NCBI GenBank assembly: GCA_964503235.1
Contig: CAZCZJ010000001.1
Location: 5,851-69,850 of the forward strand
Origin: an uncultured Dehalococcoidaceae bacterium
GTDB lineage: Bacteria > Chloroflexota > Dehalococcoidia > Dehalococcoidales > RBG-16-60-22
Length of the DNA stretch: 64,000 nt
Reading direction: 5' to 3'
A model generated the notes under the pieces. It ran no database searches. It worked only from the letters and a program-made list of their open reading frames with translations, and was not told the origin of the DNA. A program made the translations under genes and the position numbers. Numbering within the stretch: position 1 is the first letter of the stretch; each line of letters opens with the position of its first letter. Of this stretch, positions 1 to 21,687 are shown in pieces.

Positions 1-81
1 GCACTGAGCAATGAAGATACGCAAAAGGCCCTCGCTGATATTGAGGCCGACTTTGTAAAAGTAAGGAGTGTAGCGCAATGA
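1..81 (+). CDS. 3' end of an upstream CDS cut by the window edge. Possibly the N-terminal subunit of a split transketolase.
   Basis: Frame 1 is open from base 1 (ALSNEDTQKALADIEADFVKVRSVAQ*). Its TGA overlaps the next ATG (caATGAaa at 78-81), suggesting translational coupling with the transketolase C-terminal subunit. The product is inferred only from the usual split-tkt gene order. Confidence 0.35.
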   Translation, partial: ALSNEDTQKALADIEADFVKVRSVAQ

Positions 82-1031
82 AAATGACTTTTAACTTCGG
101 TAGTTTTTTATCGGCCAGGTCTGTTATGGGAGATACAATGCATGAGCTGGGTCAAAAGCATAGCAATGTCTGGGCTTTAACCGCTGACACCGGGGGCGCA
201 TTAGTAGCTTTTAAAAAGGATTTCCCCGATAGGTTTATCGATGTTGGCGTCGCGGAGCAAAATTGCGCCGGTATAGCAGCCGGTCTGGCTCTTGAAGGCA
301 ATATTCCGTTCATCGCGGGAATGATCCCGTTCATGACCATGCGCGCCTGCGAACAGAACCGCACCGCGATTTGTTACCAGGACCTCCCGGTACGTTTCAT
401 CGGGACCGGCGGCGGTCTGACTTCCGGCGGCGGCTCAACCCACAATGCGATGGAAGATATCGCAATCATGAAGTCGTTGGTCAATATGACGGTCCTCTCC
501 ATCGGCGACCCGAATATGGTCGGGGATATCATGATTCTGAGCATGGACTATCCGCACCCACTCTATATCCGTCTTGCCCAGGGTAAAAAAGACCGCATGC
601 TCTATGAGCCGGGCACCTTTACTTATAAAATCGGCATGGGAATCACCGCGCGTGATGGCAAGGATGCGACCATTATTGCTCATGGGGAAATGGTCTACGT
701 AGCTCTTGAAGCCGCCACCGCTTTGGCAACCGAAGGAATAAATGTACGGGTCATCGATATGTATTCCATCAAACCCCTGGACAAAGACCTGCTCTACAAG
801 GCTGTCAAGGAGACCGACAACATCGTAGTTCTTGAGGACCATCTCATGGACGGCGGACTGGCAAGCACAATCGCCGATGCATTCGTGGACGGTAACATTT
901 ACCCGAAAAATTTCAAGCGTCTCGGCATTCCCCAGGTATACGCAGGCTTTGGCAGCGGCGAAGAGCAACGTGCAAAATATGGTTATGATGATGTTGCCAC
1001 AATTGCGGCTGTAAAGAAAATGCTGGCATAA
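78..1031 (+). CDS. Transketolase, C-terminal (pyrimidine-binding plus C-terminal domain) subunit
   Basis: 317 aa. The segment FIDVGVAEQNCAGIAAGLALEG and overall layout are typical of the second half of split transketolases and DXS-like enzymes. The start overlaps the upstream stop. Confidence 0.85.
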   Translation: MKMTFNFGSFLSARSVMGDTMHELGQKHSNVWALTADTGGALVAFKKDFPDRFIDVGVAEQNCAGIAAGLALEGNIPFIAGMIPFMTMRACEQNRTAICYQDLPVRFIGTGGGLTSGGGSTHNAMEDIAIMKSLVNMTVLSIGDPNMVGDIMILSMDYPHPLYIRLAQGKKDRMLYEPGTFTYKIGMGITARDGKDATIIAHGEMVYVALEAATALATEGINVRVIDMYSIKPLDKDLLYKAVKETDNIVVLEDHLMDGGLASTIADAFVDGNIYPKNFKRLGIPQVYAGFGSGEEQRAKYGYDDVATIAAVKKMLA

Positions 1032-1069: not shown

Positions 1070-1990
1070 ATGACTACACAAAAGTATGCAAAATGCCTTG
1101 TTCAGAAACCGGGACCTTTTCCCCTTGAGCTCCAGGGGAAAGGCGGGAGCACCAGTAAAGACCCGGTGCCCGGAGTCAAGGCTACACATCTTATGTCCGT
1201 GGATGAAAGCGTTCTGAAAGGCTTTTTTACAGTGGACTGCTCCTGGTTGTGGAGTGGTGCCGCCAGAGGACCGGTCGGTGAGTCTCACATACACGACTTC
1301 TCTCACGTCATCGGCTTCATGGGCGGGCACATTGATAACCCCCAGGACCTCGGCGGCGAAATATCTATCTGGCTGGATGGCAATGAAGAGACACTTACCC
1401 GTAATGTCCTGATATTCGTGCCTGCTGGTGTGGCACACGGCCCGATTTTGTTCACTAAAATCACCCGTCCTGTCTTTTTCATCACTATCGCCATGACGGG
1501 CAAATATCACTGGAAAAATGTACCGGCTCCTGAAACGCCGAAGGAAAAGAAATACACCATCATGGACCACACCAAGGAGCGGTTCTCCGTCGGCGGCGAC
1601 TTCAAAGAGGCGCCGCGTCCACCAGGACCGAGAACCTCGAAGGGCGCCCGCATCCTGCATATCGAGGAAGACATGGTGCCGGGCTCGTTCTACGTTGACT
1701 TCGTCTGGATTTTTGAAGGCACCGGGGGAGCGCCGGCGCCGGAGCACACCCACGAGTGGCCGGAGCTTATCGCCTGGGCAGGTGCCGATCCCAGCCGACC
1801 GCGTCATGTTGGCGGTGAAATGAGCATTGTCTTGGGTGACGAGACCCACTCTACCGATAAGAGTACCCTGGTTTGCATCCCGGCAGGCACGAAACATTGC
1901 CCGTGGCTGTGGCACGAAATTAAGACGCCTAACTTCAATTTTTCGGCGGGTCCGCAGGGCATGTATTCAGGGTCGCACAAGAGAAGCTAG
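1070..1990 (+). CDS. Hypothetical protein with two cupin-like repeats (bicupin), function unknown
   Basis: Strong RBS (gGGAGGAGatatcATG). Two internally similar halves each carry His-rich metal-site-like motifs (ESHIHDFSHVIGFMG...PAGVAHGP and PEHTHEWPELIAWAG...PAGTKHCP). The 310-aa antisense ORF is treated as a shadow. Confidence 0.6.
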   Translation: MTTQKYAKCLVQKPGPFPLELQGKGGSTSKDPVPGVKATHLMSVDESVLKGFFTVDCSWLWSGAARGPVGESHIHDFSHVIGFMGGHIDNPQDLGGEISIWLDGNEETLTRNVLIFVPAGVAHGPILFTKITRPVFFITIAMTGKYHWKNVPAPETPKEKKYTIMDHTKERFSVGGDFKEAPRPPGPRTSKGARILHIEEDMVPGSFYVDFVWIFEGTGGAPAPEHTHEWPELIAWAGADPSRPRHVGGEMSIVLGDETHSTDKSTLVCIPAGTKHCPWLWHEIKTPNFNFSAGPQGMYSGSHKRS

Positions 1991-2537: not shown

Positions 2538-3515
2538 CTATCCTTTTATCGGCTCCAACCCTGCTTCCAGTCGAGCGTCGTTGATATGAATCAGCACCGC
2601 CTTCTCGAGCGGCATGCAGGAAAACCCGAAATCATCGATAGCCTGCTTCATGCTCACCTTCCACGGTAATCCGAATTTACCCTCCGGGTCCATCATCGAG
2701 CGGTCGCCAAAGGATATATCCGCATCCGGTATATATTTCCTGATTACCTCAGCCATGTCCAGGGCACTCTGAGGCGGTCCGCCGACGTTATAGACAGGGT
2801 GAGGTGATGACGGAGCTTTTATAAGGATTCTGGTAAATTCGGCGAGGTCATCCGCGGAGACCAGCGAAGCAAGACCGCTACCATCCCCTTCCATAGAGAA
2901 TGGCTTGCCAACCGCACAATTCGAGGGCATATCCGACCAGTATTGTGCCGGGGAACGCCCGCCGTGCCCGTAACCGATAGTAGGTCGAACACCGGTGAAG
3001 TTCATGCCAAACTGCTGAGAATAGTCCGCGGCCATTATCTCAGCGTATTTTTTACAGACGGCATAAGAGTGGGTCGGATTCGTCTGGTCATCCTCGGTAA
3101 CTTCCCGGTCGCCGTACATAGCCTGAGGTCCGTACACCGTTTCCGAACTGGCGTAGATAACACGATTCGCTCCCATAATCTTGGCAGCTTCAAAAGAGTT
3201 ATTCATGCCGAGTACGTTCACTTTTGTCTGGAGTCGCGGATCGATTCGAACGCCACCGCCCACCATAATGAAAGCCCAGTTGATTACACTGTCGATGGAA
3301 TGGAGCTTCATCACGTTCATGATATCTTCTATCTGAGATACATCCCCGCGCACATAATGGAACTTATCAACATTCCCTGCGATAGTCTTTATAAACCACT
3401 CCGGGGGCGGCATAAGGTCCATAGATACCACGGTGACAATATCAGGGTCCTTACAGAGGGCAGCCGCAGTTTTCCTTCCGAAAAGTCCGCTGCCTCCCAA
3501 TACCAGTACATTCAT
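2538..3515 (-). CDS. NAD-dependent epimerase/dehydratase family protein (extended SDR)
   Basis: 325 aa. N-terminal Rossmann motif MNVLVLGGSGLFG, and YxxxK (YAVCKKY) in the expected position. Confidence 0.85.
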   Translation of the reverse strand: MNVLVLGGSGLFGRKTAAALCKDPDIVTVVSMDLMPPPEWFIKTIAGNVDKFHYVRGDVSQIEDIMNVMKLHSIDSVINWAFIMVGGGVRIDPRLQTKVNVLGMNNSFEAAKIMGANRVIYASSETVYGPQAMYGDREVTEDDQTNPTHSYAVCKKYAEIMAADYSQQFGMNFTGVRPTIGYGHGGRSPAQYWSDMPSNCAVGKPFSMEGDGSGLASLVSADDLAEFTRILIKAPSSPHPVYNVGGPPQSALDMAEVIRKYIPDADISFGDRSMMDPEGKFGLPWKVSMKQAIDDFGFSCMPLEKAVLIHINDARLEAGLEPIKG

Positions 3516-3567: not shown

Positions 3568-3596
3568 TTGACAAGCTAGCGCACAGGGACTAAACT
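3568..3596 (+). promoter_or_regulatory. Sigma70-like promoter candidate (TTGACA-17 nt-TAAACT) for the SDR/thiolase operon
   Basis: TTGACA at 3568-3573, a 17-nt spacer, and TAAACT at 3591-3596, about 65 nt upstream of the ATG at 3661. Confidence 0.3.
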
Positions 3597-3660
3597 ATGT
3601 CAGAATACAAGAAATCAGCTTTAACCAGCCTGCAATCCTGTCATGTCTGGGGAGGTTCTT

Positions 3661-4443
3661 ATGCTATTGAAAGATAAGGTGGCTATCGTTACCGGGGGTG
3701 GTTACGGAATCGGCAGGGCAATCGCCCTCGCTTTCGCTAAAGAAGGGGCTGACGTGGTAGTGGCAGCGCGAACCGAATCAGCTCTCCAAGAAGTAGCCGG
3801 AGAAATCGAAAACCTTGGCAGGAAAAGCCTGGCGGTGAAAACCGACCTTTTAAAACCCGAAATGCCGTTGACTATGATAAAAAAAGCTCTGAGTGAATTC
3901 GGTAAAGTCGATATCCTGGTGAATAACTCCGGTGCCGAAGGGCCTATCGCTAACGTTGCCGAGATGGACTTGAAAGGATGGAACGACCTTCTGGCAGTAA
4001 ACCTTACCGGGGCTATGATTTGCTGTCGCTATGTCCTGAATAAAAGCATGATTCCCCGTCAGAGCGGGGCTATTATCAACGTTTCTTCCGCGGCGGGTAG
4101 AAGAGGACTCCCGACCAGAAGCGCCTACAGCTCTTCCAAGTTTGCCCTTATCGGCTTTACCCAGAGCCTGGCGAACGAGGTGGGACGATACGGTATCCGC
4201 GTCAACGCCATCGCCCCGGGGGCAGTCGAGGGTGAACGTCTCGAGAGGGTATTTAACATATCTGCCAAGAACCTAGGCATCACCTACGAGCAGGTGGTGG
4301 CCGGTTCCAACGCACGGTCGGCTCTCGGCAGGATGGTCAAACCCGAAGAAGTCGGTGACCTGGCGGTGTTTTTAGCGTCGGACAAATCCAGCGGTATTAC
4401 GGGGCAAACCATAAATATCGATGCCGGTGCCAACTTCAATTAA
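3661..4443 (+). CDS. SDR family oxidoreductase (3-oxoacyl-ACP reductase-like)
   Basis: TGGGYGIG glycine motif, NNSG, and YSSSK catalytic Tyr/Lys. The ATG at 3661 follows GGGGAGG and is preferred over the track start at 3643. Confidence 0.85.
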   Translation: MLLKDKVAIVTGGGYGIGRAIALAFAKEGADVVVAARTESALQEVAGEIENLGRKSLAVKTDLLKPEMPLTMIKKALSEFGKVDILVNNSGAEGPIANVAEMDLKGWNDLLAVNLTGAMICCRYVLNKSMIPRQSGAIINVSSAAGRRGLPTRSAYSSSKFALIGFTQSLANEVGRYGIRVNAIAPGAVEGERLERVFNISAKNLGITYEQVVAGSNARSALGRMVKPEEVGDLAVFLASDKSSGITGQTINIDAGANFN

Positions 4444-4445
4444 TC

Positions 4446-4826
4446 GTGATAGTAAAAAGGATTAATATGAATTTTATACAATCATTTATTCTCAAGGTTT
4501 ATCCTGTGGCAGTAGTCATTATCGTTCTGGCAGGAATCGGGGTTTTTATTTCGGCGTTCCTGGCTTCAGATATACAACTCCAGATAGCCCTGGGACTGGG
4601 CGGCGTGGGACTATTTTCTCTCGGGCCGATATTCATTAAACTTGCCCGGGATGCCAAGAAAGCACAGGAGAAACTCGACGCCATCATAGCCAAGCTGGAT
4701 GAACTCCAGCAGGAACTGCAAAAGAAAGAAGAACCTGGTAAATCAGGGGTCGCTATCGCTGATATTATCAATTCCAGTCTGAAATTCTACTCTGAATTCA
4801 AGGACAGGGAAAAGAAGGAGGAATGA
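4446..4826 (+). CDS. Small membrane protein with a C-terminal charged coiled-coil tail, function unknown
   Basis: Two hydrophobic segments are followed by KKAQEKLDAIIAKLDELQQELQKKEE. It sits in the operon between the SDR and the HMGCS-like gene. The start is uncertain (GTG 4446 or ATG 4467). Confidence 0.5.
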   Translation: MIVKRINMNFIQSFILKVYPVAVVIIVLAGIGVFISAFLASDIQLQIALGLGGVGLFSLGPIFIKLARDAKKAQEKLDAIIAKLDELQQELQKKEEPGKSGVAIADIINSSLKFYSEFKDREKKEE

Positions 4827-4883
4827 TTTCCTGACGCCCGGTATTATCTCCATTTCCATAATCCGGGAAAGGATTTATAAATT

Positions 4884-6302
4884 ATGGCAGGGATTTTATC
4901 ATACGGAGCCTATATACCTCTCCGCAGGCTGGGACCGGGCACCCAGGGATGGAATGCTACTGGCGAAAAATCCGTAGCCAACTGGGACGAAGACAGCCTG
5001 ACAATGGCGGTAGCCGCCGCTATAGATTGCCTGGGGGATATCGACCGGAAAACGGTTGACGGACTCTATTTCGCCACGACGACGCCGCCCTACGGTGAGA
5101 AGCTAGCCGCCACCACCGCAGCCTGGGCGACCGACCTGCGAACCGATATAGTAACCGCGGATATTACCGATTCGTTACGTGCCGGTACCGCCGCCTTGAG
5201 GATGGCGGCAGACACCGTGGCAGCGGGGACGGCGAAGCGTCTTCTGGTCACCACATCCGACCTGCGAACAGGTTCCGGAAACATGAATAATAATTTAGGC
5301 GATGGCGCCGCCGCTCTACTCATCGGGGATGGCGATGTAATAGCCACTATAGAAGCCGGTTACTCGCTGAATAACGAGTTGCTGGATGTGTGGCGTTCCA
5401 GCGGCGCCGGGAACGTACGCTCCTGGGAAGACCGCTTTGTCTTTGAACAAGGCTATCTAAAAGTGGTACCACAGGCTGTAAAAAGCTTCCTAGAAAAGAC
5501 CGGCATTTCGCTCAATGTCGTTAATAAGGCTATCCTCTACGGACCCGACTTGCGACGGCACCGCCAGATGGCGGGTATACTGGAACTAAAACCAGAGCAG
5601 GTGCAGGACCCCCTTTTCGATAAGTTGGGTAATACCGGCAATGCTTTCAGCCTGATGATGCTGGCAGCCGCCCTCGAAGACGCCCGACCGGGAGATAACA
5701 TACTACTGGTAAGCTATGGCGACGGCGCCGATATCCTCCTGCTGAAGGTAACCGATAAAATCAAAGATATGAAGGAAAGGTGGGGAATCAAGCGTAGTCT
5801 GGCCGCCAAAACGATTTTACCCAGCATCGGCGAATATAACGCTTACCGAGAGTTCGCCAACTCAGACCCTGAGGGATTCGGGGGGTCGTCGGCATCGGTT
5901 ATTGCCCGCGAACGTGACGCTATTTATAGTCTGCACGGCGTGAAATGCCTGACCTGCGGGACCGTCCAGTATCCACCCCAGAGAATATGCACCAACTGTC
6001 ATACCAAAGATAACTTTGAACCCTACAGCTTTGCTGATAAGAAAGGCAGGGTATTTACCTATACGCTGAAGTATGGCGGCGATATCCCGCCTTTCGCCCG
6101 CCCGGGAGTTGACACCATGGTTGATTTTAAAGGCGGCGGGCGGGCGCTTTTCGGGATGACCGACATGATAGCCGATGAAGTAAAAGTGGGCATGGACGTT
6201 GAAATGAGCTTTCGGACGCTGGGTTCAGGCGGGGGTATCCATAACTATTTCTGGAGATGTATGCCATCCCGAGAAAGCTGGCTGGCGAAGGAGGCCAAAT
6301 AG
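4884..6302 (+). CDS. HMG-CoA-synthase-like (thiolase-fold) domain fused to a C-terminal DUF35 zinc-ribbon/OB-fold domain
   Basis: 472 aa. The N-terminal ~340 aa have the HMGCS/KAS-III-like layout. The C-terminus has CLTCG...CTNCH (a CxxC...CxxC Zn ribbon) followed by an OB-fold-like region, typical of DUF35. Leu98 (5175-5177) occupies the nucleophile position. Confidence 0.8.
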   Translation: MAGILSYGAYIPLRRLGPGTQGWNATGEKSVANWDEDSLTMAVAAAIDCLGDIDRKTVDGLYFATTTPPYGEKLAATTAAWATDLRTDIVTADITDSLRAGTAALRMAADTVAAGTAKRLLVTTSDLRTGSGNMNNNLGDGAAALLIGDGDVIATIEAGYSLNNELLDVWRSSGAGNVRSWEDRFVFEQGYLKVVPQAVKSFLEKTGISLNVVNKAILYGPDLRRHRQMAGILELKPEQVQDPLFDKLGNTGNAFSLMMLAAALEDARPGDNILLVSYGDGADILLLKVTDKIKDMKERWGIKRSLAAKTILPSIGEYNAYREFANSDPEGFGGSSASVIARERDAIYSLHGVKCLTCGTVQYPPQRICTNCHTKDNFEPYSFADKKGRVFTYTLKYGGDIPPFARPGVDTMVDFKGGGRALFGMTDMIADEVKVGMDVEMSFRTLGSGGGIHNYFWRCMPSRESWLAKEAK

Positions 6303-7481
6303 ATGGATAGTATTAAAGATAAAATTGCTATCGTCGGGATGGGATGTACCAAGTTCGGCGAAAACTGGGACAAGAGCGCCGAGGACATGATGGTGGATGC
6401 CGCCTCGGAAGCCTGTGAGGACGCCGGGATAGAGCTTAAAGATATTCAAGCGGCCTGGTTCGGCACGACCCGCCTGGGAACCGCCGAACCCTGCGCCACC
6501 GCGCTTAAGCTGGACTATATACCGGTTACCAGGGTGGAGAATTTATGCGCCACCGCCACCGAAGCCCTTCGAAATGCCTGTTTTGGTATTGCGTCAGGCG
6601 TGTATAATGTCGTTCTGGCTATCGGCGTTGAAAAGCTCAAGGACCAGGGCATGGGCGGTCTGGGCACGGTAAGCGGCGCCGGGGGCAACGGCACTCTGGA
6701 ATGGGGTATGTCAGCGGCGATGTTCTTCGCCAGAATGGCTACCCGATACATGAACCACTACCGCTTGAGTTACGAAGAATTTAAGCAAATCCTGGCAAAA
6801 ATCTCGGTAAAGAACCACCACAATGGCTCTCTGAATCCCCGGGCCCATTTCCAGAGAGAGATAACCGAAGAGCAAGCCATCAACGCCCCCATGGTGTCCT
6901 GGCCTCTGGGACTTTATGACGCCTGCGGTGTTAGCGACGGCTCGGCGGCGGCTATTCTCTGTCGGGCGGATATGGCAAAAAACTTCCGCGACGACTATGT
7001 CCTAGTCAAGGGACTGGGGCTGGCGGTAGGTGCGCGCCAGGGATACCTGCAGCCTGACTACGACATGGTTCACATGGAGGAGAGCGTACGCGCTGCGAAG
7101 CAAGCCTATGACATGGCGGGTATCAAAGACCCCTTTAAAGAGATAGACCTTGCCGAGGTGCACGACTGTTTCACCATCACCGAACTGGTTATCACGGAAG
7201 ACCTGGGATTCTGTCCGCGGGGTAAAGGACCGGAATACGTTAAAAACGGCACCTTTAAACTGGACGGCGAACTGGCGGTCAATCCCGACGGTGGACTGAA
7301 AAGCTTCGGGCACCCCATCGGCGCCAGCGGCCTGAGAATGATTTATGAAATATACAAGCAGATGCAGGGAAAGGCCGGCCCACGCCAGCGGAAAAACCCC
7401 AGCCTGGGCTTGACCCATAATTTTGGCTTGAATCCGGGCAGCGGCATCGGCAGCGTGGCGATATTGGGGCAGAGGGACTAA
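6303..7481 (+). CDS. Thiolase, SCP-x / archaeal acetoacetyl-CoA thiolase type
   Basis: 392 aa. IAIVGMGCTKFG N-terminus, nucleophile context VENLCATATEAL (Cys82), HDCFT and GHPIGASG motifs. The start directly abuts the upstream stop (TAGATG). Confidence 0.85.
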   Translation: MDSIKDKIAIVGMGCTKFGENWDKSAEDMMVDAASEACEDAGIELKDIQAAWFGTTRLGTAEPCATALKLDYIPVTRVENLCATATEALRNACFGIASGVYNVVLAIGVEKLKDQGMGGLGTVSGAGGNGTLEWGMSAAMFFARMATRYMNHYRLSYEEFKQILAKISVKNHHNGSLNPRAHFQREITEEQAINAPMVSWPLGLYDACGVSDGSAAAILCRADMAKNFRDDYVLVKGLGLAVGARQGYLQPDYDMVHMEESVRAAKQAYDMAGIKDPFKEIDLAEVHDCFTITELVITEDLGFCPRGKGPEYVKNGTFKLDGELAVNPDGGLKSFGHPIGASGLRMIYEIYKQMQGKAGPRQRKNPSLGLTHNFGLNPGSGIGSVAILGQRD

Positions 7482-7489
7482 TATTTTAA

Positions 7490-7578
7490 GTCATTGCGAG
7501 TCCTTCCGCTGAAGGACGAAGCAATCCGCTTTCTCTCAGGGGACGGATTACTTCGGGCGTAGCCCTCGTAATGACAGG
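7490..7578. repeat. Inverted doublet of the GIY-YIG-associated hairpin repeat (copies 3a and 3b) with no cargo gene
   Basis: 7490-7528 reads GTCATTGCGAG-[TCCTT ccgctg AAGGA]-CGAAGCAATCCG. The reverse complement of 7544-7578 reads cctGTCATTACGAG-[GGC tac GCC]-CGAAGTAATCCG. About 15 nt separate them, in the intergenic gap between the thiolase and CoA-transferase genes. Confidence 0.85.
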
Positions 7579-7601
7579 TATTTATCACTAAGGAGGTCGG
7601 C

Positions 7602-8339
7602 ATGATAAATAAAGTCGTCGGCAGCTTCGATGAAGCGGTAGCCGATATTTTCGACGGTGCCGTTATCCTCATGGGCGGCTTCGGGCCCGCCAACGGAACA
7701 CCGAGCAATTTATTAAGAGCTCTGGCCAGACAGGGTGCCAGCCAATTGACACTCGCCGCCAATACACCAGGATACGGTCGTGCACCGGAGGGTTCCAAGC
7801 CCTTCCGTAAGACTCCACCCAACTATGATGACGGCGGATTGCTGATACAGTCCGGTCAGGTAAAGAAGGTTATCTGCGCTTTCCCCGGTATGAACCGACC
7901 CGGCATGACCGCCCCGCTGCACCAGAAATGGGAAACCGGCGAGCTGGAAGTAGAGATGGTACCCCAGGGTACCCTGGCGGAAAGAATCAGGGCGGCCAAG
8001 GCGGGAATCGGGGCTTTCTATATTCCCACGGGTGCAGGAACGGTTATGGAGAATGGTAAGGAGAAGCGTGTTATTGACGACCGCGAATATATCCTCGAAT
8101 ATCCCCTTAAAGCTGACTTTGCCCTGGTAAGGGCGTATAAAGCCGACCGCTACGGCAATTGCGTTTATCAGGGAACCTCCCGCAACTTCAATCCTGTCAT
8201 GGCGGGTGCGGCCAAGGTAACCATCATCGAGGTTGATAAACTGGTAGAGCTGGGCAGCCTCGACCCGGAAGTAATCGTCACCCCTGGTATCTATGTCGAT
8301 CGCATAGCCGTCAGAGAAAACGGTAGGAAAGGGGCCTGA
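7602..8339 (+). CDS. 3-oxoacid CoA-transferase, subunit A
   Basis: 245 aa. MINKVVGSFDEAVADIFDGAVILMGGFG is a typical family I CoA-transferase A N-terminus. RBS AGGAGG upstream. Confidence 0.9.
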   Translation: MINKVVGSFDEAVADIFDGAVILMGGFGPANGTPSNLLRALARQGASQLTLAANTPGYGRAPEGSKPFRKTPPNYDDGGLLIQSGQVKKVICAFPGMNRPGMTAPLHQKWETGELEVEMVPQGTLAERIRAAKAGIGAFYIPTGAGTVMENGKEKRVIDDREYILEYPLKADFALVRAYKADRYGNCVYQGTSRNFNPVMAGAAKVTIIEVDKLVELGSLDPEVIVTPGIYVDRIAVRENGRKGA

Positions 8340-8340
8340 G

Positions 8341-9006
8341 ATGAAAGAAAGACTTGACGAACAGACGATGGCTCTCAGAGTGGCTAAAGAGTTCCGGGAC
8401 GGCATGATAATCAACCTGGGCTTCGGTATTCCCACGCTGGCTGCTAATTTCATACCCGAGGATATCGAGGTTATTTTCCACGCTGAAAACGGCTGCCTCG
8501 GCTATGGTCCCATGCCCACGACGGAAGAGGAAGAGGATTTTCACCTGGTGAACGCCACGGGTACCTTCGCCACACCCAAGCCCGGAATGTGCTTCTTTGA
8601 CCACGCCGACTCTTTTTCCATGATAAGGGGCAGGCACATCGATTTATGTGTCCTCGGCGGTTTACAGGTATCGGAGAAGGGCGATCTCGCCAACTGGGCA
8701 ACCGGAGTCGGCCGGCCGGGTAACATCGGCGGCGCCATGGACCTGGCGTTCGGAGCATATCACCTCATTGTCGTGATGACTCATACCACTAAAAATAACG
8801 AACCCAAATTGCTCAAAAAATGCACCTATCCGCTGACGGCGCCGCGCTGTGTGAATCTTATCGTTACTGATATCTCGGTAATTGAAGTAACATCTGACGG
8901 TTTGCTTCTAAAAGAGACCGCGCCTGGATGGGAAGTTGAGGACGTCCAGGACATAACCGAACCCGAATTAATAATCGCTCCCGACCTCAAACAAATGGCA
9001 CTGTAA
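8341..9006 (+). CDS. 3-oxoacid CoA-transferase, subunit B
   Basis: 221 aa with the (S)ENG-type catalytic glutamate motif (HAENGCLGYGP). It starts 1 nt after the subunit A stop. Confidence 0.9.
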   Translation: MKERLDEQTMALRVAKEFRDGMIINLGFGIPTLAANFIPEDIEVIFHAENGCLGYGPMPTTEEEEDFHLVNATGTFATPKPGMCFFDHADSFSMIRGRHIDLCVLGGLQVSEKGDLANWATGVGRPGNIGGAMDLAFGAYHLIVVMTHTTKNNEPKLLKKCTYPLTAPRCVNLIVTDISVIEVTSDGLLLKETAPGWEVEDVQDITEPELIIAPDLKQMAL

Positions 9007-9041
9007 TATATTCATAATCGACTCGACCAAGGAGGCTACCG

Positions 9042-9773
9042 ATGGGAAAACTCGACGACAAGGTAGCGCTGGTAACCGGCGCCAGCCGCACTATCGGCAA
9101 GGCTATCGCCATTGCTCTGGCTAAAGAAGGCGCCAAGTTAGTTGTGGCGGCGCGTACTCTGGAGAAACTAAACGATACGGCGGCTATAATCAGGGAATCC
9201 GGCTCCGAAGCGCTGGTCGTGCCCACCGACGTACGAAGCGAAGAGGAGATAGAGAGTCTGTTTAAAAAGACCATGGAGCATTACGGTCGACTCGATATTC
9301 TCGTTAATAATGCCGGTATTTTCGGGTCCGGCCCGATTGATGAGTTATCCACGGAGACCTGGGATGATGTTATCGCCACCAACCTCCGTAGCGCGTTCCT
9401 GTGCAGTCGGGCTGCCTTCAGGATTATGAAAGCGCAGGGCGGTGGGAGAATAATAAATATCGGCAGTGTTTCGGCGTCCCGCGTACGGCCGGAAAACGCC
9501 CCCTACAGCAGCGCCAAGTTCGGCATGGTCGGTCTGACCCAGACTATCGCCCTGGAAGGTCGCGACCATAATATCAACTGTGGCATCCTGCATCCCGGAA
9601 TAGTAATTCGTGATGATATGCCGGAACATATCAAAAAAGATAAGAATATACCAGCGATGTCTTCGGAAGAAATCGCCGCCACTGCCGTTTACATGGCATG
9701 TCAGCCACCCCATGTTAACATTTTGGAGCTTGTCCAGTTACCTAAAGACCAGCCGTACCTGGGGAGGGGATAA
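9042..9773 (+). CDS. SDR family oxidoreductase
   Basis: TGASRTIG, NNAG and YSSAK motifs. 243 aa. Confidence 0.85.
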   Translation: MGKLDDKVALVTGASRTIGKAIAIALAKEGAKLVVAARTLEKLNDTAAIIRESGSEALVVPTDVRSEEEIESLFKKTMEHYGRLDILVNNAGIFGSGPIDELSTETWDDVIATNLRSAFLCSRAAFRIMKAQGGGRIINIGSVSASRVRPENAPYSSAKFGMVGLTQTIALEGRDHNINCGILHPGIVIRDDMPEHIKKDKNIPAMSSEEIAATAVYMACQPPHVNILELVQLPKDQPYLGRG

Positions 9774-9782: not shown

Positions 9783-11990
9783 CTAATCGGTGGCGTTAAT
9801 CACTATCCTGGCATCGAGAGCCACTATGCTATCGCCAGCAGCCAACATTGGATTTATGTCAAGTTCACCTATTTGAGGATTGTTCTCGATAAAATCAGAG
9901 ATTTTAACAATAATAGTTTCAAGTCGAGAGACATCAACCGCCTCCTGCCCGCGGTAGCCCTGTAAAAGCGCATATCCTTTAATTTCCCTGACCATTTCGG
10001 CGGCATCCAGCTTTGAAACAGGCACCAGCCGAAAAGCCACATCTTTTAACACTTCTACCAATACACCGCCAAGTCCAAACATTATTACCGGACCGAACTG
10101 CAGGTCTTTGTTCATGCCGATAATTACTTCAACGCCAGGCGGTGCCATTTTTTGTACGGATACTCCTTCTATTCCGGCCCCGGGTTGCTTTTGCTTTACG
10201 GAAGATATCATTTCGCGGTAAGCCCGGCCGACCTGTGCGGCGTTAGCCAATCCCAAAACCACCCCACCGATATCACTTTTATGCACGATATCCGGTGAGA
10301 TTATTTTCATCACGACCGGGAAACCGATTTCTTTACTAAACGAAATAGCTTCCTTCTTCGTCCTCGCCAGACGGGTTTTATTAACGGGTATCCCGGCTTT
10401 CTTGAGAAGCTCTTTAGATTCGACTTCGTTCAGGAATTTCCTGGAATCCTGTCTTTTAGTTTCTGGTAAATGACCGCTTTCTTTATAAACACTTTCGGAA
10501 AAAACTATGTTTTTTCTATCCTCAAGATATTTACGGTACCACGCCAGAGAACGCATCACCCTGGCGGCGCGCCGCGGATGTGAGTATTCCGTTAATTTTA
10601 TCTTCGGAGGAGAAGAAATATCATTTCTCTCCTGTCGAGGATTAAATGACAACCTGTTGATAAACACCATAGGTTTGTTGTGTTTCTTTATGTCCTTGTC
10701 CAGTATTCTGAGGTTTTTTTCATTCTCTTCCTGCAGGGCACGGAACTGCTCCGGTTTGATATCCCCGATAGGGCCGTGTACCGTAGCCATCGGCGGCAGC
10801 AGGGATATCACGCAGTCTACATTCCTGTCCGCTAAAAGAAGGCTCAGGCAGGATACAACGGTTTTATCGCCCGGCATCGGGCGGATGCCTACCAGGTCGA
10901 CCGGATTGCCGTGAGACCACCGCGGGGGTAGAATGGCACTCAGTTTTTTGAGAGTCACCGATTCCAGGGAAGCTATACTTAAACCCTCTTTCTCGCATAC
11001 CTCGGCGGCAACCACGCCGAAACCGCCACCCATCGTAAGTATGGCTACTCTATTGCCGCGGGGCAAAGGCAGGTTCAACAGAGCCAGGACCATATCACAG
11101 AGTTCTCCTTCGTCTTCGGCCCTGATTACCCCGGACTGATTGAAAGCTGCTGTATAAACTTCATCCGAGCCGGCTAACGCCCCGGTGTGCGAACGGGCTG
11201 CCCTGGCCGATTCTCCGGTGGTACCCGATTTCATCACGACAATCGGCTTTTGGGTCGTTATCTCTTTAGCCAGATTATAGAAGCGCCTGCCTTCTCTCAG
11301 CCCCTCGATATAGGCGGCGATTACTTTAGTGTTATCATCCTGTGCTATATATTCCAGATAATCTTCAAGATGCAAATCGGCTTCGTTGCCGGTACTGACC
11401 AGCTTACTGAGTCCGATTCCCTGTCCGGCGGCAGTCTGCATGATACTCGCACCAAGCGTCCCGCTCTGACTCAGCAGTGCCAGAGGGCCCGGGGGAATCA
11501 TACCAGCAACACCGGCGCTGGCGACGTGGGAGTGCATATCGGCATGACCGATGCAATTGGGACCGATAAAGTGAATGCCGGCTTTTCTGGCAATGGCTAG
11601 CAGTTCGGCTTCCAGCCTGGCGCCTTCCTCATCGACCTCGGCGAATCCCGCGGAAATAATTACGGCGGCTTTGACCTTTTTCTCCGCACACTGACGAAAG
11701 ACCTGGGGTACGATAGCGGCGGGAACCACGATTATCGCCAAGTCGACTGTATCATTAATATCGAGGATTGTATCGTGACATTTTATCCCCAGGACTTCGG
11801 AACAATTAGGATTAACAGCATAGACACGCCTTCCCTTTTTTGCCTTTGCCGAAGCAACGGCCGCCCTCGTGGCATCCAGCCCCCAGGAACCGGGAACCTC
11901 CTTAGCGCCAATCACGGCTATCGAGTCGGCAGCAAACAGGGCGTGCCAGAAACTATCGGTATGGTGTTGCGGATTATTTTGAGAATTCAT
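9783..11990 (-). CDS. ADP-forming (NDP-forming) acyl-CoA synthetase, fused alpha and beta domains
   Basis: 735 aa. N-terminal CoA-binding and ligase-CoA domains with a phosphohistidine loop (RSHTGALAGS), and a C-terminal ATP-grasp domain. Confidence 0.85.
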   Translation of the reverse strand: MNSQNNPQHHTDSFWHALFAADSIAVIGAKEVPGSWGLDATRAAVASAKAKKGRRVYAVNPNCSEVLGIKCHDTILDINDTVDLAIIVVPAAIVPQVFRQCAEKKVKAAVIISAGFAEVDEEGARLEAELLAIARKAGIHFIGPNCIGHADMHSHVASAGVAGMIPPGPLALLSQSGTLGASIMQTAAGQGIGLSKLVSTGNEADLHLEDYLEYIAQDDNTKVIAAYIEGLREGRRFYNLAKEITTQKPIVVMKSGTTGESARAARSHTGALAGSDEVYTAAFNQSGVIRAEDEGELCDMVLALLNLPLPRGNRVAILTMGGGFGVVAAEVCEKEGLSIASLESVTLKKLSAILPPRWSHGNPVDLVGIRPMPGDKTVVSCLSLLLADRNVDCVISLLPPMATVHGPIGDIKPEQFRALQEENEKNLRILDKDIKKHNKPMVFINRLSFNPRQERNDISSPPKIKLTEYSHPRRAARVMRSLAWYRKYLEDRKNIVFSESVYKESGHLPETKRQDSRKFLNEVESKELLKKAGIPVNKTRLARTKKEAISFSKEIGFPVVMKIISPDIVHKSDIGGVVLGLANAAQVGRAYREMISSVKQKQPGAGIEGVSVQKMAPPGVEVIIGMNKDLQFGPVIMFGLGGVLVEVLKDVAFRLVPVSKLDAAEMVREIKGYALLQGYRGQEAVDVSRLETIIVKISDFIENNPQIGELDINPMLAAGDSIVALDARIVINATD

Positions 11991-12368: not shown

Positions 12369-13925
12369 CTATTCTTTAGCTGTAATATAGTTTGAAGATT
12401 CCGATGCCTCGTTAGGGTCGAAGTTCTTCTTAATTTTCCTCAACAGGATATGGTAATTATGCGCTTCCGGTCCGTACATATCGTGGAGGGCGTCGCTCCA
12501 GACATGGTGGGGCACGCCGAAACGACCCCTTATCGCGGTTTTATTAGCCTCACGGCTGAGCATTCCCTGGACCTTCATGATATGGTCAGGCCCGGCCGGA
12601 TTATAGCGTATAAGAATCTCACCGTGACCGGTATGACCGTGCTCGATGGACTGTATAAACGGGTGAATATAGTCGTCCATGATAAGACCCTGGTCGATAA
12701 GCTGTTGCTTTAAATTCGAGGTATGCAGGATATAGCGGGTCATCAGCGGGAAGACATCCGAACCGCCGACGGTTCCGCCACCCCAACCCGTAGCACGTGA
12801 AGTCTCGCGAATAGAGCCGGTAATTCGAACAAACCTCCAGAGAAAACCAGCGCCCATTACGGGGTCCTCGACGTCCTTAAGCGACATGGCATCGGTCTCC
12901 TTCATTATCTCCTCCAGCGCGCCCTTCTTATAGGCAAAATCGTTGGCGGAATTACCGACGATAATCAACAAAAACCCCGGACCCTGCACCTGGCTGGCAA
13001 ACTTCGCTAAATAGTCCAGGTCTTCCTGGTTATCGGTAGCGATGTTGGAAGCCATCATGGCGGCGTTGAAGCCCATCAACGTGAAGCCTATTTCCGCCTC
13101 TCCCACCCTTTTAACAGCATCAATCGTCACATCAATATCTTTGAAAGACAGGTATCTTATCATGAAGTTCGGCGGCATTTCCGGGTGCCGGTACTGCGGG
13201 CAGACACCTTCAACGGGAAATACTGCCGGACCCGGCCAGTGGTATATCTTTACCGCGCCGGCCGTGAAGACGCCCAATCCGGCCAGAGGTGTGGAGTTAC
13301 CCCTGATAATACCTCTCAAAGACGGTCCGGGACCGTCGCCGCAAAACCAGTCGCCGTGAGAACCGAGGGAGCCCAACTTGACGATTTCGCCGTCGCCGGT
13401 TACCCACTCTACCGCCAGCATATTTCTTTCGGTATAGCTGCCGCTCTGGCTCATGTGTCCCAGACCCACGTGAGATGCCAGCGGCATGACCGAGCAGTTC
13501 GCCCCGGCACCACATTGATTACAGGTCAGACCGCGTTTCATCAATTCGGACTGGAGCTGAGCGCCGATAACGTATGGCTCGACGGCGGCATACATACCCT
13601 TTTCATTTATTTCCAGGATACGGTTCATGCGACGCAGGTCTATCTTGATACAATTCGGCGCTACAGGGTCGCAGTAAAGCCAGCCGGTACTCGATGCCTT
13701 ATACTGTACCTTTTGCTGGTTACAGAGTTTTACGATTGCCTGGACTTCCCGGGTATTAGAAGGGAGAGTCACAGCTTCGAACCGCGGTATATAGGTCACT
13801 TTTTCCGGCATGGTCTTTTTCCGGATAGGAAAAGAATAAGATTCCGTAACAACAGGGTCATCAGAAACATTCTCCGGCCCGAGTATATCCTCTAGTCTTT
13901 TATAAAAATCCCTATCGAGAGCCAT
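12369..13925 (-). CDS. FAD-binding (PCMH/GlcD-type) oxidoreductase subunit, divergent
   Basis: 518 aa. The N-terminal FAD_binding_4-like pattern (FEAVTLPSNTREVQAIVKLCNQQKV...IDLRRMNRILEINEKGMYAAVEPYV) is recognisable. The usual GGGT loop is divergent (ASSTGW). Confidence 0.7.
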   Translation of the reverse strand: MALDRDFYKRLEDILGPENVSDDPVVTESYSFPIRKKTMPEKVTYIPRFEAVTLPSNTREVQAIVKLCNQQKVQYKASSTGWLYCDPVAPNCIKIDLRRMNRILEINEKGMYAAVEPYVIGAQLQSELMKRGLTCNQCGAGANCSVMPLASHVGLGHMSQSGSYTERNMLAVEWVTGDGEIVKLGSLGSHGDWFCGDGPGPSLRGIIRGNSTPLAGLGVFTAGAVKIYHWPGPAVFPVEGVCPQYRHPEMPPNFMIRYLSFKDIDVTIDAVKRVGEAEIGFTLMGFNAAMMASNIATDNQEDLDYLAKFASQVQGPGFLLIIVGNSANDFAYKKGALEEIMKETDAMSLKDVEDPVMGAGFLWRFVRITGSIRETSRATGWGGGTVGGSDVFPLMTRYILHTSNLKQQLIDQGLIMDDYIHPFIQSIEHGHTGHGEILIRYNPAGPDHIMKVQGMLSREANKTAIRGRFGVPHHVWSDALHDMYGPEAHNYHILLRKIKKNFDPNEASESSNYITAKE

Positions 13926-13940
13926 TTTCCATGACCTCCT

Positions 13941-15209
13941 TTATACTGCCCTCTCCACCAGCTCAACGACATCATATACTTTCAATTTGCTACCGGTCTC
14001 TTTAATAGCCTTTACGAAATTCTGCTCACACCAGGGACAGGCAGTCACTATCGCCTCAGCCCCGGTGGCTTCGGCTTCCTTTATCCTCTCATCGGCCGTC
14101 CACAGGGAGAACTCGGGATTGGACTCATTGACACCACCACCAGCACCACAACACCAGGCGTACTCCTTTATCCTTACCATTTCCACCATTTTCAACCCAG
14201 GTATACTCTTAATGACATCCCGCGGCGGTTCGTATACACCGTATGTACCGCGCCGGAACTCCTTATACGGCTCGAAAACACGTATATGTCCCGGTACCTC
14301 CTTGCCCTGCCAGTGTATCCAGGGCTCCCCCAGCCTCCCCAGATAACACGGGTCATGATAGGTTACCGTCATACCCACTTTCTTCTTCGGCTTGAGATTG
14401 CCTTCCTTAATGATCCTGTCCAGATATTCGGTAATATGTACTACTTCCAGGTCTCCCCTGAGTTCATACTTATCATAGAGAACCTTGAATGCCTGATAGC
14501 CGTCAGCACAGCTGGTTACCAGTGTTTTGGCACCAGACTTCTTGATCATTGCCATGTTCTGCTTCGCCTGGTTCAGGAAGTCTTCCTTATAGCCCATCTG
14601 GTAGGCACGACCGCCGCAGCATGTCTCGTTATTACCCCCAATACCAACATCGATACCAGCCTTTTGTAAAAGTTTTACGGTGGCTTTAGCAAGCTTCCAC
14701 ATATCTTTGTTATAGCTGGTCAGGCAGCCGACTTGGTAAATAACATCTACCTTCTCTTTGGTATAGTCTTTTACCTTGAGTCCTGCCGCCCATTCTCCCC
14801 GCTTGCTCCTGGCCCCCGGTACCATCGTGCCCTGTTTCCTGAGACTGCCGATTACCTTGTCTAAAGCCGGGTTGGTATGCCCTTCCTCGACGGCTTTTAT
14901 CCTCGTCTCGTATATCGGCTCTATTACCTCCATGTCCATGGCATACTTACACGATACGTCGCAGGCCCCGCACATCTGGCAGTTGTAGATGATATCCAGA
15001 AGCTTGTCTGTATATTCAAGCCGGTTCTCCAGCATAGCTACGCCAATACCCATACGGCCGCCACCGGAATAGGCGTGAAAGTTATACCTGGATATACTGG
15101 GGCAGACGTTAACAGGCTGATATCCCGATACCTTTTCAAAGGGTATGAATTTACAGGCGGAGCACCTTCGGCACGTTTCCATTTCATTCCGTAAATCTTC
15201 CAGTGCCAT
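13941..15209 (-). CDS. (Fe-S)-binding protein with two CCG domains (GlcF / HdrD-like)
   Basis: 422 aa. N-terminal Cys clusters (CRRCSACKF...CP and CQMCGACDVSC) and two CCG motifs (ETCCGG, WCCGAGGG). Confidence 0.85.
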   Translation of the reverse strand: MALEDLRNEMETCRRCSACKFIPFEKVSGYQPVNVCPSISRYNFHAYSGGGRMGIGVAMLENRLEYTDKLLDIIYNCQMCGACDVSCKYAMDMEVIEPIYETRIKAVEEGHTNPALDKVIGSLRKQGTMVPGARSKRGEWAAGLKVKDYTKEKVDVIYQVGCLTSYNKDMWKLAKATVKLLQKAGIDVGIGGNNETCCGGRAYQMGYKEDFLNQAKQNMAMIKKSGAKTLVTSCADGYQAFKVLYDKYELRGDLEVVHITEYLDRIIKEGNLKPKKKVGMTVTYHDPCYLGRLGEPWIHWQGKEVPGHIRVFEPYKEFRRGTYGVYEPPRDVIKSIPGLKMVEMVRIKEYAWCCGAGGGVNESNPEFSLWTADERIKEAEATGAEAIVTACPWCEQNFVKAIKETGSKLKVYDVVELVERAV

Positions 15210-15258
15210 CTCTATTCCTCCTTGATTTGCCTACTGAAAACCTGACTTCGGAAATGTA

Positions 15259-16725: not shown

Positions 16726-16900
16726 AATATCCTCCTCATTATCTGTCCTGTATACCTGAAAAATGGAATACCACCACAGGGTAAAATAGTCATTCGTATT
16801 TTCGCCTTCATGATAGCTTTCCGTTAGTTCTGATGTCAATTATCCCGGTTATACTATGTATTAGAGTCAGCTTTAATAGCTATTGTTTTAAGGATTCTTA

Positions 16901-18108: not shown

Positions 18109-18180
18109 GATTAATTAAAATACAAATTTTCCACCAATATCTGTAAGTGGATGAAAAGCGAATACTCTTTTGGTTGCGTG

Positions 18181-19980: not shown

Positions 19981-20023
19981 TTTGGAATTGTCCATCTATT
20001 AGGAAGGAATACATACCGAATAA

Positions 20024-20782: not shown

Positions 20783-20801
20783 ACTTGAAGGAGGACTTTT
20801 T

Positions 20802-21473: not shown

Positions 21474-21506
21474 TATATTGAGTACGCTTTCGTCCCGTTA
21501 AGATGT

Positions 21507-21550
21507 TTGACAAAGATGTTTGACAAAAATGAATAACAGATGGGTATAAT
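21507..21550 (+). promoter_or_regulatory. Promoter candidate with tandem AGATGTTTGACAA repeats, upstream of the catalase leader
   Basis: Two TTGACA hexamers (21507-21512 and 21520-21525) lie within a 13-bp tandem repeat. TATAAT is at 21545-21550, with a 19-nt spacer from the second hexamer, which is longer than optimal. Confidence 0.3.
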
Positions 21551-21610
21551 TAAAGTGTAATCAAATCACGAGTTTCTGTATAACGGGAGGTTGAGGCGGG
21601 ATGAGCACCA

Positions 21611-21660: not shown

Positions 21661-21687
21661 CTGAAATTTGACCACAGGAGGTTTTTC

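Follow-up and report, generated by a model that had tools for sequence, protein, structure and literature searches.

In a 64,000-nucleotide stretch of an uncultured Dehalococcoidaceae genome (contig CAZCZJ010000001.1; "the window" below means the whole of this stretch), an operon couples a 472-residue fusion protein to an SCP-x/archaeal-type thiolase. The fusion protein joins a domain resembling 3-hydroxy-3-methylglutaryl-CoA synthase (HMGS) to a DUF35 part and has lost the catalytic Glu, Cys, and His of HMGS; the thiolase, encoded directly downstream, has its catalytic motifs in place. We favor, with reasonable though far from complete confidence, a reading in which the fusion protein is an inert HMGS-fold/DUF35 scaffold and the thiolase carries out CoA-dependent thiolysis of a short 3-oxoacyl-CoA, most simply acetoacetyl-CoA. 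The operon would then probably be an ATP-yielding breakdown module for a 3-oxoacid, probably acetoacetate.

An HMGS fold that has lost its catalytic residues

The initial annotation of this DNA, made by eye, had described the protein as an HMGS-like/DUF35 fusion, and the Pfam, NCBIfam, and PDB matches agree with it. Residues 1 to 322 match the NCBIfam model of archaeal-type HMGS, NF003274, with 189.8 bits, under its cutoff of 244; the protein also falls under the other HMGS equivalog cutoffs (TIGR00748, 143.6 versus 353; TIGR01835, 54.7 versus 360). When the HMGS-like domain was compared with PDB sequences by phmmer, PhlA came first (9skh_A, 1e-26) and the HMGS of M. thermolithotrophicus second (6esq_I, 8e-26), while residues 346 to 462 match the DUF35 subunit of the archaeal complex (6esq_E, 3e-12). 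Archaeal HMGS and PhlA match with 94 to 97 bits, against 28 for Enterococcus MvaS, the bacterial MvaS enzymes scoring far lower. The annotation, which had relied on an Enterococcus MvaS-type sequence, was right in its residue calls but not in its choice of relative. In the DUF35 part, the zinc-ribbon residues Cys355, Cys358, Cys369, and Cys372 (nt 5946 to 5999) are invariant in 83 of 83 homologues, and residues 385 to 444 form the OB fold. The AlphaFold2 (AF2) model of the fusion protein has a mean pLDDT of 68 and a pTM of 0.74, with a confident core, and Foldseek ranks the archaeal HMGS 6esq_J first (target-normalized TM 0.80, E = 3e-23), with PhlA and MucA next. This match confirms the HMGS/thiolase fold of the protein; the residue equivalences that follow come from sequence alignments and not from Foldseek.

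In these alignments, the Glu position of HMGS is occupied by Thr66 (ATTTPPY; nt 5079 to 5081), the Cys position by Leu98 (TDSLRAGT; nt 5175 to 5177), and the His position by Tyr219 (ILYGP; nt 5538 to 5540). Asn250 (nt 5631 to 5633), the fourth member of the E-C-H-N tetrad, is kept. The phmmer pairing sets the HMGS stretches GSESHPY, EFACKAGT, and VFHQPN against ATTTPPY, TDSLRAGT, and ILYGPD of the fusion protein. PhlA, which also lacks Glu, Cys, and His, has Cys, Gly, and Gln at these positions (GTCTNPY, QFSGKSGT, and VFQQNV). The same register was obtained by phmmer (against 6esq_I and PhlA), by a MAFFT alignment of about 85 homologues, and by a MAFFT alignment of 150 representatives, so that the loss proposed initially, including Leu98 at the Cys position, is reproduced in three sequence alignments. 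The fusion protein has the fold of a functional HMGS and neither its catalytic residues nor scores above its equivalog cutoffs.

The loss is not peculiar to this locus but is shared by the whole family. A scan of one genome per species gave 384 relatives, from which 79 loci were kept (37 to 80% identity, with matches of nearly full length where the contig permits). They span Dehalococcoidales and other Chloroflexota, Desulfobacterota, a Myxococcales metagenome-assembled genome (MAG), Spirochaetota, Bathyarchaeia, and Hadarchaeota. In an exhaustive HMMER search, 504 clusters at 50% identity reached E ≤ 1e-30, and the best 150 of these clusters provided the representatives that were aligned. Neither the Cys nor the Glu of HMGS is kept in any of the approximately 85 genomic homologues or the 150 representatives. 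Among the latter, position 98 is Leu in 107 and position 66 is Thr in 122. The genomic homologues show L, V, Q, M, P, or T at the Cys position and Y, P, S, or T at the His position, and pooling both family alignments gives L/V/Q/M/P/T/I and Y/P/S/A/N, respectively. Given such varied replacements in the family, the old positions have not been taken over by any new conserved catalytic residue. Cys49 was considered as a nucleophile that might have moved; close relatives all have it, as do 97 of the 150 representatives, but the remaining 53 have Ala or another residue there, and it was therefore ruled out in this role. As judged from these alignments, the residue loss is ancient and defines a large, old family rather than this locus. 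The absence of a conserved replacement residue across the family, together with the biochemistry of a Pseudomonas fluorescens homologue (PMC12960953), backs the initial view that the HMGS-like protein is noncatalytic.

The partner thiolase and the conserved operon

The thiolase carries the motifs VENLCATATEAL, HDCFT, and GHPIGASG, which place Cys82 (nt 6546 to 6548), His287-Asp-Cys289-Phe (residues 287 to 290; nt 7161 to 7172), and Gly-His337-Pro (residues 336 to 338). It passes the cutoff of NCBIfam NF004810 ("acetyl-CoA acetyltransferase") with 539.4 bits versus 403, in line with the intact enzyme that the annotation had assumed. Among PDB entries, it matches the archaeal complex's thiolase best (6esq_A, 1e-61, 212 bits); BbsB matches at 4e-44 and PhlC and MucB at only about 1e-21 (78 to 84 bits). 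Across 54 partner thiolases, the nucleophilic Cys, HDCF, and GHP never vary.

The two genes are linked across the family. The thiolase gene lies directly 3′ of the fusion gene in 61 of the 63 loci that could be scored downstream, from Chloroflexota, Desulfobacterota, and the Myxococcales MAG to Bathyarchaeia and Hadarchaeota; of the two remaining loci, one reflects a frame artifact and the other a 780-nt gap. The genes are separated by 0 to 24 nt in 41 of 54 pairs; in the window, the stop codon of the first runs straight into the start codon of the second. In 50 of 51 locus pairs, the thiolase shows higher conservation than the fusion protein (mean identity, 62.6% versus 50.9%), the pattern expected of a catalytic subunit accompanied by a structural one.

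Liao et al. (Nat Commun 2026, PMC12960953) provide the biochemical counterpart of this pair. Along with the structure of the streptococcal MucABC, compared with PhlACB and the archaeal complex, they reported 1,030 mined bacterial clusters of HMGS together with acetyl-CoA acetyltransferase (ACAT) and DUF35, of which 1,001 lack secondary-metabolism neighbors. A P. fluorescens pair from this group of 1,001 combines a fused HMGS-DUF35 protein without the E-C-H-N tetrad with an ACAT that has Cys, HDxF, and GHx. The pair formed neither HMG-CoA nor acetoacetyl-CoA from acetyl-CoA, yet it cleaved acetoacetyl-CoA, and mutation of the His of HDxF nearly abolished the activity of the complex (PMC12960953). 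In the PhlA, MucA, and P. fluorescens HMGS-DUF35 complexes, catalysis resides in the thiolase subunit, HDxF being lost from PhlACB and MucABC; a shared CoA-binding chamber was described for complexes of the HMGS/ACAT/DUF35 type, and the P. fluorescens complex was seen as an intermediate in evolution, with no pathway defined for it (PMC12960953). It is for this P. fluorescens pair that thiolysis has been shown. As far as sequence can tell, the window pair has every feature that defines the P. fluorescens class, an assignment that rests on shared defining features and not on direct alignment. A homologue search seeded with a proteobacterial member recovered Aromatoleum, Azoarcus, and Variovorax, with no named Pseudomonas among the top 120.

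The operon adds a probable metabolic setting. Seven genes lie on the same strand from 3643 to 9773, and a convergent acyl-CoA synthetase gene ends 9 nt past the second of two genes for short-chain dehydrogenases/reductases (SDR1 and SDR2) (Table 1). All the genes of the initial list are present, with correct coordinates and motifs; its start for SDR1, 3661, is an internal Met also used in the JGI gene call, the longer open reading frame (ORF) beginning at 3643. A scan of the window against Rfam found no RNA elements.

Both CoA-transferase subunits exceed their cutoffs (A, TIGR02429, 250.5 versus 128.5; B, TIGR02428, 269.4 versus 243.6), and subunit B keeps the catalytic Glu49 in its AENG motif. 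By their sequences, they form a class-I 3-oxoacid CoA-transferase of the PcaIJ/ScoAB family. The solved relatives of subunit A in the PDB are SCOT, AtoD, and CtfA, and those of subunit B are 3-oxoacid, butyrate-acetoacetate, and succinyl-CoA:3-ketoacid transferases; all of them use acetoacetate or acetoacetyl-CoA. For both SDRs, the second-best PDB match is the (3R)-hydroxyacyl-CoA dehydrogenase 2et6 (4e-49 for SDR2), and SDR2 probably acts as a 3-hydroxyacyl(-CoA) dehydrogenase or 3-oxoacyl-CoA reductase.

The comparison of neighborhoods across genomes that the annotation had called for was made among loci with a fusion protein of 55% or higher identity to that of the window (Dehalococcoidales-like MAGs), counting each gene per scorable locus (Table 1). 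It ties the CoA-transferase genes to the pair in 14 of 16 loci. From these counts, the core module consists of the fusion protein, the thiolase, CoA-transferase A and B, and usually SDR2. By analogy, its gene logic is that of ato/sco-type acetoacetate use, with an archaeal-type thiolase and its inactive partner at the center. The first two genes of the operon had been listed as members as well. They are indeed present, and the small ORF does encode the two hydrophobic segments and charged tail expected of the membrane/coiled-coil protein described, but they are not conserved parts of the module (6/18 and 1/20 loci). SDR1 is an accessory gene of the cluster. The small ORF has no Pfam or NCBIfam match and occurs in a single other related locus (L005, 58% identity), so that it is probably an accessory gene too.

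A pathway can be proposed from these assignments. CoA-transferase A/B would activate a short 3-oxoacid, most simply acetoacetate, or the matching 3-hydroxyacid; an SDR would interconvert the 3-hydroxy and 3-oxo forms; the thiolase complex would release acetyl-CoA; and the ADP-forming acyl-CoA synthetase could convert acetyl-CoA to acetate with formation of ATP. We infer that the fusion protein and the thiolase would form a heteromeric complex related to the archaeal thiolase/HMGS/DUF35 complex, with chemistry confined to the thiolase site and its residues Cys82, His287, Cys289, and His337. The fusion protein would act as a structural subunit that binds and stabilizes the thiolase, perhaps contributing to a shared CoA chamber or to SDR docking. 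The beta-oxidation-like or retro-Claisen module suggested at first is supported as a fitting reading. The proposed harvest of ATP by the synthetase is plausible, although its linkage to the module is only partly conserved (6/11 loci).

Table 1. Position of the features at the 5′ end of the window and frequency of the genes in related loci
Feature	Position	Strand	Basis or remark	Related loci
Transketolase C-terminal subunit				8/13
Bicupin, 306 aa, two His-x-His metal motifs	1070..1990	+	Motifs; generic bicupin fold	7/14
Extended SDR ("epimerase/dehydratase"), divergent	2538..3515	-	Pfam Epimerase, 5e-35	10/15
Promoter-like site TTGACA-17-TAAACT	3568..3596	+	10/12 matches, consensus match only; divergent intergenic region 5′ of SDR1	
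SDR1, classical SDR, TGGGYGIG and YSSSK (Tyr162)	3643..4443	+	Pfam adh_short, 1e-57	6/18
Small ORF, 119-126 aa	4446/4467..4826	+	Two hydrophobic segments, charged coiled-coil-like tail	1/20
Fusion protein, 472 aa	4884..6302	+	Pfam ACP_syn_III/ACP_syn_III_C, zf-ChsH2, OB_ChsH2_C	
HMGS-like domain of fusion protein, aa 1-~325	4884..5858	+	NCBIfam, PDB, alignments, AF2	
DUF35 part of fusion protein	5928..6215	+	Pfam zf-ChsH2 and OB_ChsH2_C	
SCP-x/archaeal-type thiolase	6303..7481	+	NCBIfam NF004810, motifs	17/17
3-Oxoacid CoA-transferase subunit A	7602..8339	+	TIGR02429	14/16 (A and B)
3-Oxoacid CoA-transferase subunit B	8341..9006	+	TIGR02428; Glu49 in AENG, 8485-8487	14/16 (A and B)
SDR2, classical SDR, TGASRTIG and YSSAK (Tyr155)	9042..9773	+	Pfam adh_short, 3e-58	10/14
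ADP-forming acyl-CoA synthetase, fused alpha and beta parts, convergent after SDR2	9783..11990	-	Pfam CoA_binding_2, Succ_CoA_lig, ATP-grasp_5	6/11

Substrate and direction of the pathway

Several observations weigh against the proposed acetoacetate-cleaving module. The DUF35 part of the AF2 model is weak (pLDDT about 40 to 55), and the link to the P. fluorescens class is indirect, as stated above. SDR2 scores under the cutoffs for 3-hydroxybutyrate dehydrogenase (NF009093, 196 versus 258; TIGR01963, 179 versus 307) and lacks Ser-x-His, the substrate-carboxylate signature of that enzyme, with Ser instead of His two residues past the catalytic Ser. Both SDRs have the motif VVAAR, with an Arg after strand β2, which we take as a sign of NADP(H) rather than NAD(H) use; this would fit the reductive direction better. 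The acyl-CoA synthetase is encoded on the other strand, where its gene closes a GlcD/GlcF-like minus-strand operon, which it may serve instead. Finally, the conservation of the bicupin, the extended SDR, and a split transketolase suggests that the true substrate may not be free acetoacetate.

SDR1 is also under the cutoff (204 versus 258), and canonical 3-hydroxybutyrate dehydrogenase was rejected as an identity for either SDR, both being below cutoff and SDR2 lacking the signature residue as well. NADP(H) use by both SDRs would be odd in a purely oxidative pathway. The synthetase itself is under every NCBIfam equivalog cutoff. The GlcD/GlcF-like set (FAD_binding_4, CCG/Fer4, and FAD_binding_4; window 12369 to 16839, minus strand) lies upstream on the strand of the synthetase, hence the possibility of a common operon. 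A second CCG/Fer4 protein is encoded 8 kb beyond this set (24478 to 25746, minus strand), and in one locus, L022, a FAD-linked oxidase gene is directly 3′ of CoA-transferase B.

The same scaffold and thiolase could serve a longer, branched, or unusual 3-oxoacid or 3-hydroxyacid, produced by the bicupin, the extended SDR, the transketolase-like enzyme, and a Zn-dependent alcohol dehydrogenase. We regard this as unlikely but worth serious attention. The bicupin and the "epimerase" stay near the fusion/thiolase pair despite changes in gene order or orientation (L014, L022, and L024), the extended SDR being on the other strand and the other side in L014; among related loci, the bicupin is found in 7 of 14 and the extended SDR in 10 of 15. 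The bicupin family is small, with 268 detectable homologues; those with a name all come from Dehalococcoidia/Dehalococcoidales, the others being unnamed or carrying generic cupin labels. In other lineages, moreover, the pair serves varied beta-oxidation-like pathways. Against a special substrate, the solved CoA-transferase relatives all act on acetoacetate or short acids, and the characterized homologous complex cleaves acetoacetyl-CoA. The conservation of the neighbors is partial, and much of it could reflect the shared ancestry of close genomes. The fold search gave no specific function for the bicupin either: its AF2 model (pLDDT 88) matches generic bicupins only (quercetinase YxaG, oxalate decarboxylase, and BacB), and its best PDB match by sequence has E = 0.28. 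Just distant sugar-nucleotide enzymes were matched by the extended SDR in the PDB.

Upstream of these genes are encoded a split transketolase-like enzyme (N and C subunits), a Zn-dependent alcohol dehydrogenase, and a glyoxalase/VOC protein (window 78 to 1031; L001:1219-4619). The transketolase and alcohol dehydrogenase genes recur upstream in at least eight related Dehalococcoidales loci, where the transketolase position holds two different paralogues, of about 85% or about 30% identity.

The module might also run in the condensing, reductive direction, making acetoacetyl-CoA, reducing it with an NADPH-type SDR to 3-hydroxybutyryl-CoA, and releasing 3-hydroxybutyrate through the CoA-transferase as an electron sink or storage precursor; this we hold to be distinctly improbable. 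It would agree with the VVAAR Arg of both SDRs, presumably of NADP(H) type, and with the biosynthetic nature of the archaeal enzyme that is the nearest solved relative of the thiolase. A precedent exists in Sulfolobus acidocaldarius, where a ketothiolase/DUF35 pair drives condensation by binding both a MaoC dehydratase and an SDR-type ketoacyl-CoA reductase (bioRxiv 10.1101/2024.07.05.601840). However, the P. fluorescens complex gave no detectable acetoacetyl-CoA from acetyl-CoA, the operon contains neither a dehydratase nor an enoyl reductase, and no polyhydroxyalkanoate synthase was found among the scanned window ORFs. Relatives of the pair elsewhere lie beside acyl-CoA dehydrogenases and hydratases, in catabolic-type clusters. 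An ADP-forming acyl-CoA synthetase, in turn, usually marks the consumption of acetyl-CoA for ATP.

That the HMGS-like domain itself gained a new catalytic activity through other residues (aldol or retro-aldol reaction, decarboxylation, or acyl transfer) appears very improbable. Purifying selection clearly acts on the domain. Among 83 homologues, 54 positions show at least 95% conservation, and many of these hold charged residues (including R15, E28, D35-E36-D37, D93, D126, R128, D140, E182, E265, and D283). Yet the four former active-site positions vary freely in the family, Cys49 fares as described above, and the three relatives studied place catalysis in the thiolase subunit. The conserved residues can be explained by the fold, by interfaces, and by a shared CoA-binding chamber. 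The "new chemistry" and "aldolase" options of the initial annotation thus find no support; in particular, aldolase-type thiolase-fold proteins lack the nucleophilic Cys, whereas the window thiolase retains it along with HDCF and GHP. A Friedel-Crafts C-acetyltransferase of the PhlACB/MucABC type, acting on a small-molecule acceptor, can practically be set aside: PhlA is formally the best PDB sequence match of the HMGS-like domain and PhlA and MucA are among the top fold matches, but HDCF, whose loss characterizes PhlACB and MucABC, is present and invariant in the partner thiolases, the thiolase resembles the archaeal enzyme far more closely (212 bits versus 78 to 84 for PhlC and MucB), and Pfam scans of the window found no polyketide synthase (PKS) or nonribosomal peptide synthetase (NRPS) domains.

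Other features of the window lie outside this module. A ferredoxin and an aldehyde:ferredoxin oxidoreductase (AFOR) are encoded at 26208 to 28567; an AFOR gene adjoins the fusion/thiolase pair in L022. An 1101-residue protein unusually fuses a POR_N/TPP 2-oxoacid:ferredoxin oxidoreductase to GltD-like Fer4_20/Pyr_redox_2 domains, with a POR gamma gene adjoining (33298 to 37225, minus strand). CotH kinase-like, VTC-domain, and DUF4956 proteins are followed by a heme catalase (18151 to 23190), which is surprising in a presumably anaerobic Dehalococcoidales genome. Finally, an alpha-glucan cluster (43477 to 62828; MalQ, GH13, GH57/DUF3536, branching enzyme, a TreS-maltokinase-like fusion, GlgE, and glucan phosphorylase) looks like a GlgE-type glycogen pathway.

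The wider family and its relation to known systems

Beyond Dehalococcoidales, distant fusion/thiolase pairs adjoin genes for acyl-CoA dehydrogenase, enoyl-CoA hydratase, MaoC, SDR, AMP-forming ligase, and family-III CoA-transferase, as well as extra DUF35 and thiolase genes. The pair also occurs on catabolic plasmids, with 37 plasmid records matching overall; those of Azoarcus sp. KH32C and Rhodococcus opacus PD630, checked directly, show the same residue pattern. Some genomes contain two tandem pairs (L032 and L042), and in others (L054, L059, L060, and L065) a thiolase and a stand-alone DUF35 come first, followed by the fusion protein and a thiolase, which suggests repeated duplication and specialization of the module.

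In Desulfobacterota and the Myxococcales MAG, the scaffold is extended to a four-domain protein of about 909 residues, HMGS-like-DUF35-SDR-SCP2 (L083:10001-12730; also L071 to L074 and L080 to L082). Genes for a TetR regulator and an MFE-2-like hydratase-2/SDR/SCP2 protein (L083:7857-9980) lie 5′ of it, and 3′ are those for the thiolase, a 144-residue protein without a family match, and an acyl-CoA dehydrogenase. Such fusions are Rosetta-stone evidence, at the sequence level, that the scaffold would work with a 3-hydroxyacyl-CoA dehydrogenase. Tentatively, the inactive HMGS-DUF35 protein may do more than stabilize the thiolase as a leftover: it could serve as a platform on which an SDR-type 3-hydroxyacyl-CoA dehydrogenase docks as well, giving a channeled assembly for beta-oxidation or ketolysis with shared CoA. 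The best indications are the four-domain fusions beside MFE-2-like, thiolase, and acyl-CoA dehydrogenase genes and, in the window, the SDR genes that flank the pair. If true, this would be a catabolic mirror of the archaeal DUF35-mediated fatty acid synthase, widespread in anaerobes and aerobic degraders. In uncultured Dehalococcoidales, it would support the fermentation of 3-hydroxy or 3-oxo acids with a yield of ATP, and the bicupin and the extended SDR might provide an unusual substrate.

The architecture of a fused inactive HMGS-DUF35 protein with a thiolase is already described (Liao et al. 2026), and our analysis does not reveal new chemistry. What it adds is the placement of "orphan" complexes in defined catabolic operons, namely, 3-oxoacid CoA-transferase/SDR/acyl-CoA synthetase operons in Dehalococcoidales and beta-oxidation clusters elsewhere, and the existence of natural SDR fusions to the scaffold. 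A very common and poorly annotated gene pair is thereby given a probable role, and uncultured Dehalococcoidales a concrete candidate for the fermentation of short-chain 3-oxoacids. In databases, the fusion protein is listed as "HMG-CoA synthase," "3-oxoacyl-ACP synthase III C-terminal domain protein," or "OB-fold protein"; metabolic reconstructions should drop the mevalonate-pathway HMGS label for these genes. Our literature search for the fusion, directed at Dehalococcoidia and at anaerobic pathways, yielded Liao et al. 2026 only.

The archaeal thiolase/HMGS/DUF35 complex (6ESQ) contains the nearest solved relatives of the thiolase and the DUF35 part and the best fold match of the HMGS-like domain, and its thiolase also has HDCF and GHP. 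It differs in that its HMGS is active (E-C-H-N) and channels acetoacetyl-CoA to mevalonate, while the window protein lacks Glu, Cys, and His, and in that DUF35 is a separate protein there and fused here. Among the scanned ORFs of the window, none encodes a mevalonate-pathway enzyme such as HMG-CoA reductase or mevalonate kinase. PhlACB of P. protegens and MucABC of S. macacae (PDB 5M3K, 5MG5, 9SKH, and 9VBO) likewise combine a noncatalytic HMGS-like protein, an SCP-x-like catalytic subunit, and DUF35; unlike the window pair, they have lost HDxF, acylate small molecules, consist of three polypeptides, and belong to antibiotic biosynthetic clusters. The likeness to PhlA and the set of SDR, CoA-transferase, and thiolase genes led us to consider the anaerobic phloroglucinol/triacetate pathway, which involves a cyclase-family dihydrophloroglucinol cyclohydrolase and a BKACE-family triacetate lyase (PMC10470551). 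Neither key enzyme is encoded in the window, the SDR matches are generic, and this candidate was rejected.

Other systems share the association of DUF35 with an SCP-x-type partner. BbsAB, the benzoylsuccinyl-CoA thiolase of G. metallireducens (PDB 7PXP), combines a DUF35 zinc-finger subunit with an SCP-x-type HDxF thiolase in an anaerobic, beta-oxidation-like pathway, but it has no HMGS-like subunit, and the window proteins miss the BbsAB equivalog cutoffs (fusion protein, 22 versus 250 for BbsA; thiolase, 162 versus 750 for BbsB). In the ChsH2-Ltp2 and Shy-Sal aldolases of steroid side chains, DUF35 (in ChsH2) also binds an SCP-x thiolase-fold protein; there the partner lacks the nucleophilic Cys and is an aldolase, whereas here the thiolase has its Cys and the HMGS-like protein is the inactive one. 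The DUF35-mediated thiolase-SDR assembly of the S. acidocaldarius fatty acid synthase complex is echoed by the HMGS-like-DUF35-SDR-SCP2 fusions. That complex is biosynthetic and lacks an HMGS-like subunit.

With respect to gene logic, the window operon is reminiscent of E. coli atoDAEB, B. subtilis scoA-scoB-bdh, and clostridial ctfAB-thl, which combine a class-I 3-oxoacid CoA-transferase A/B, a thiolase, and a dehydrogenase and include the solved relatives of the window CoA-transferase. These operons use a stand-alone thiolase II, in contrast to the archaeal/SCP-x-type thiolase with its inactive HMGS-DUF35 partner, and the window dehydrogenase is not a canonical 3-hydroxybutyrate dehydrogenase. 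The closest counterpart is the P. fluorescens ACAT/HMGS-DUF35 pair, which shares the fused HMGS-like and DUF35 parts, the loss of Glu, Cys, and His, the intact thiolase, and the absence of PKS or NRPS neighbors, and whose thiolysis of acetoacetyl-CoA suits the CoA-transferase context of the window. The window protein differs from it in having the Asn of the tetrad, and its host belongs to an uncultured Dehalococcoidales lineage in which a conserved operon links the pair to a 3-oxoacid CoA-transferase and an SDR, an acyl-CoA synthetase often lying beside them.

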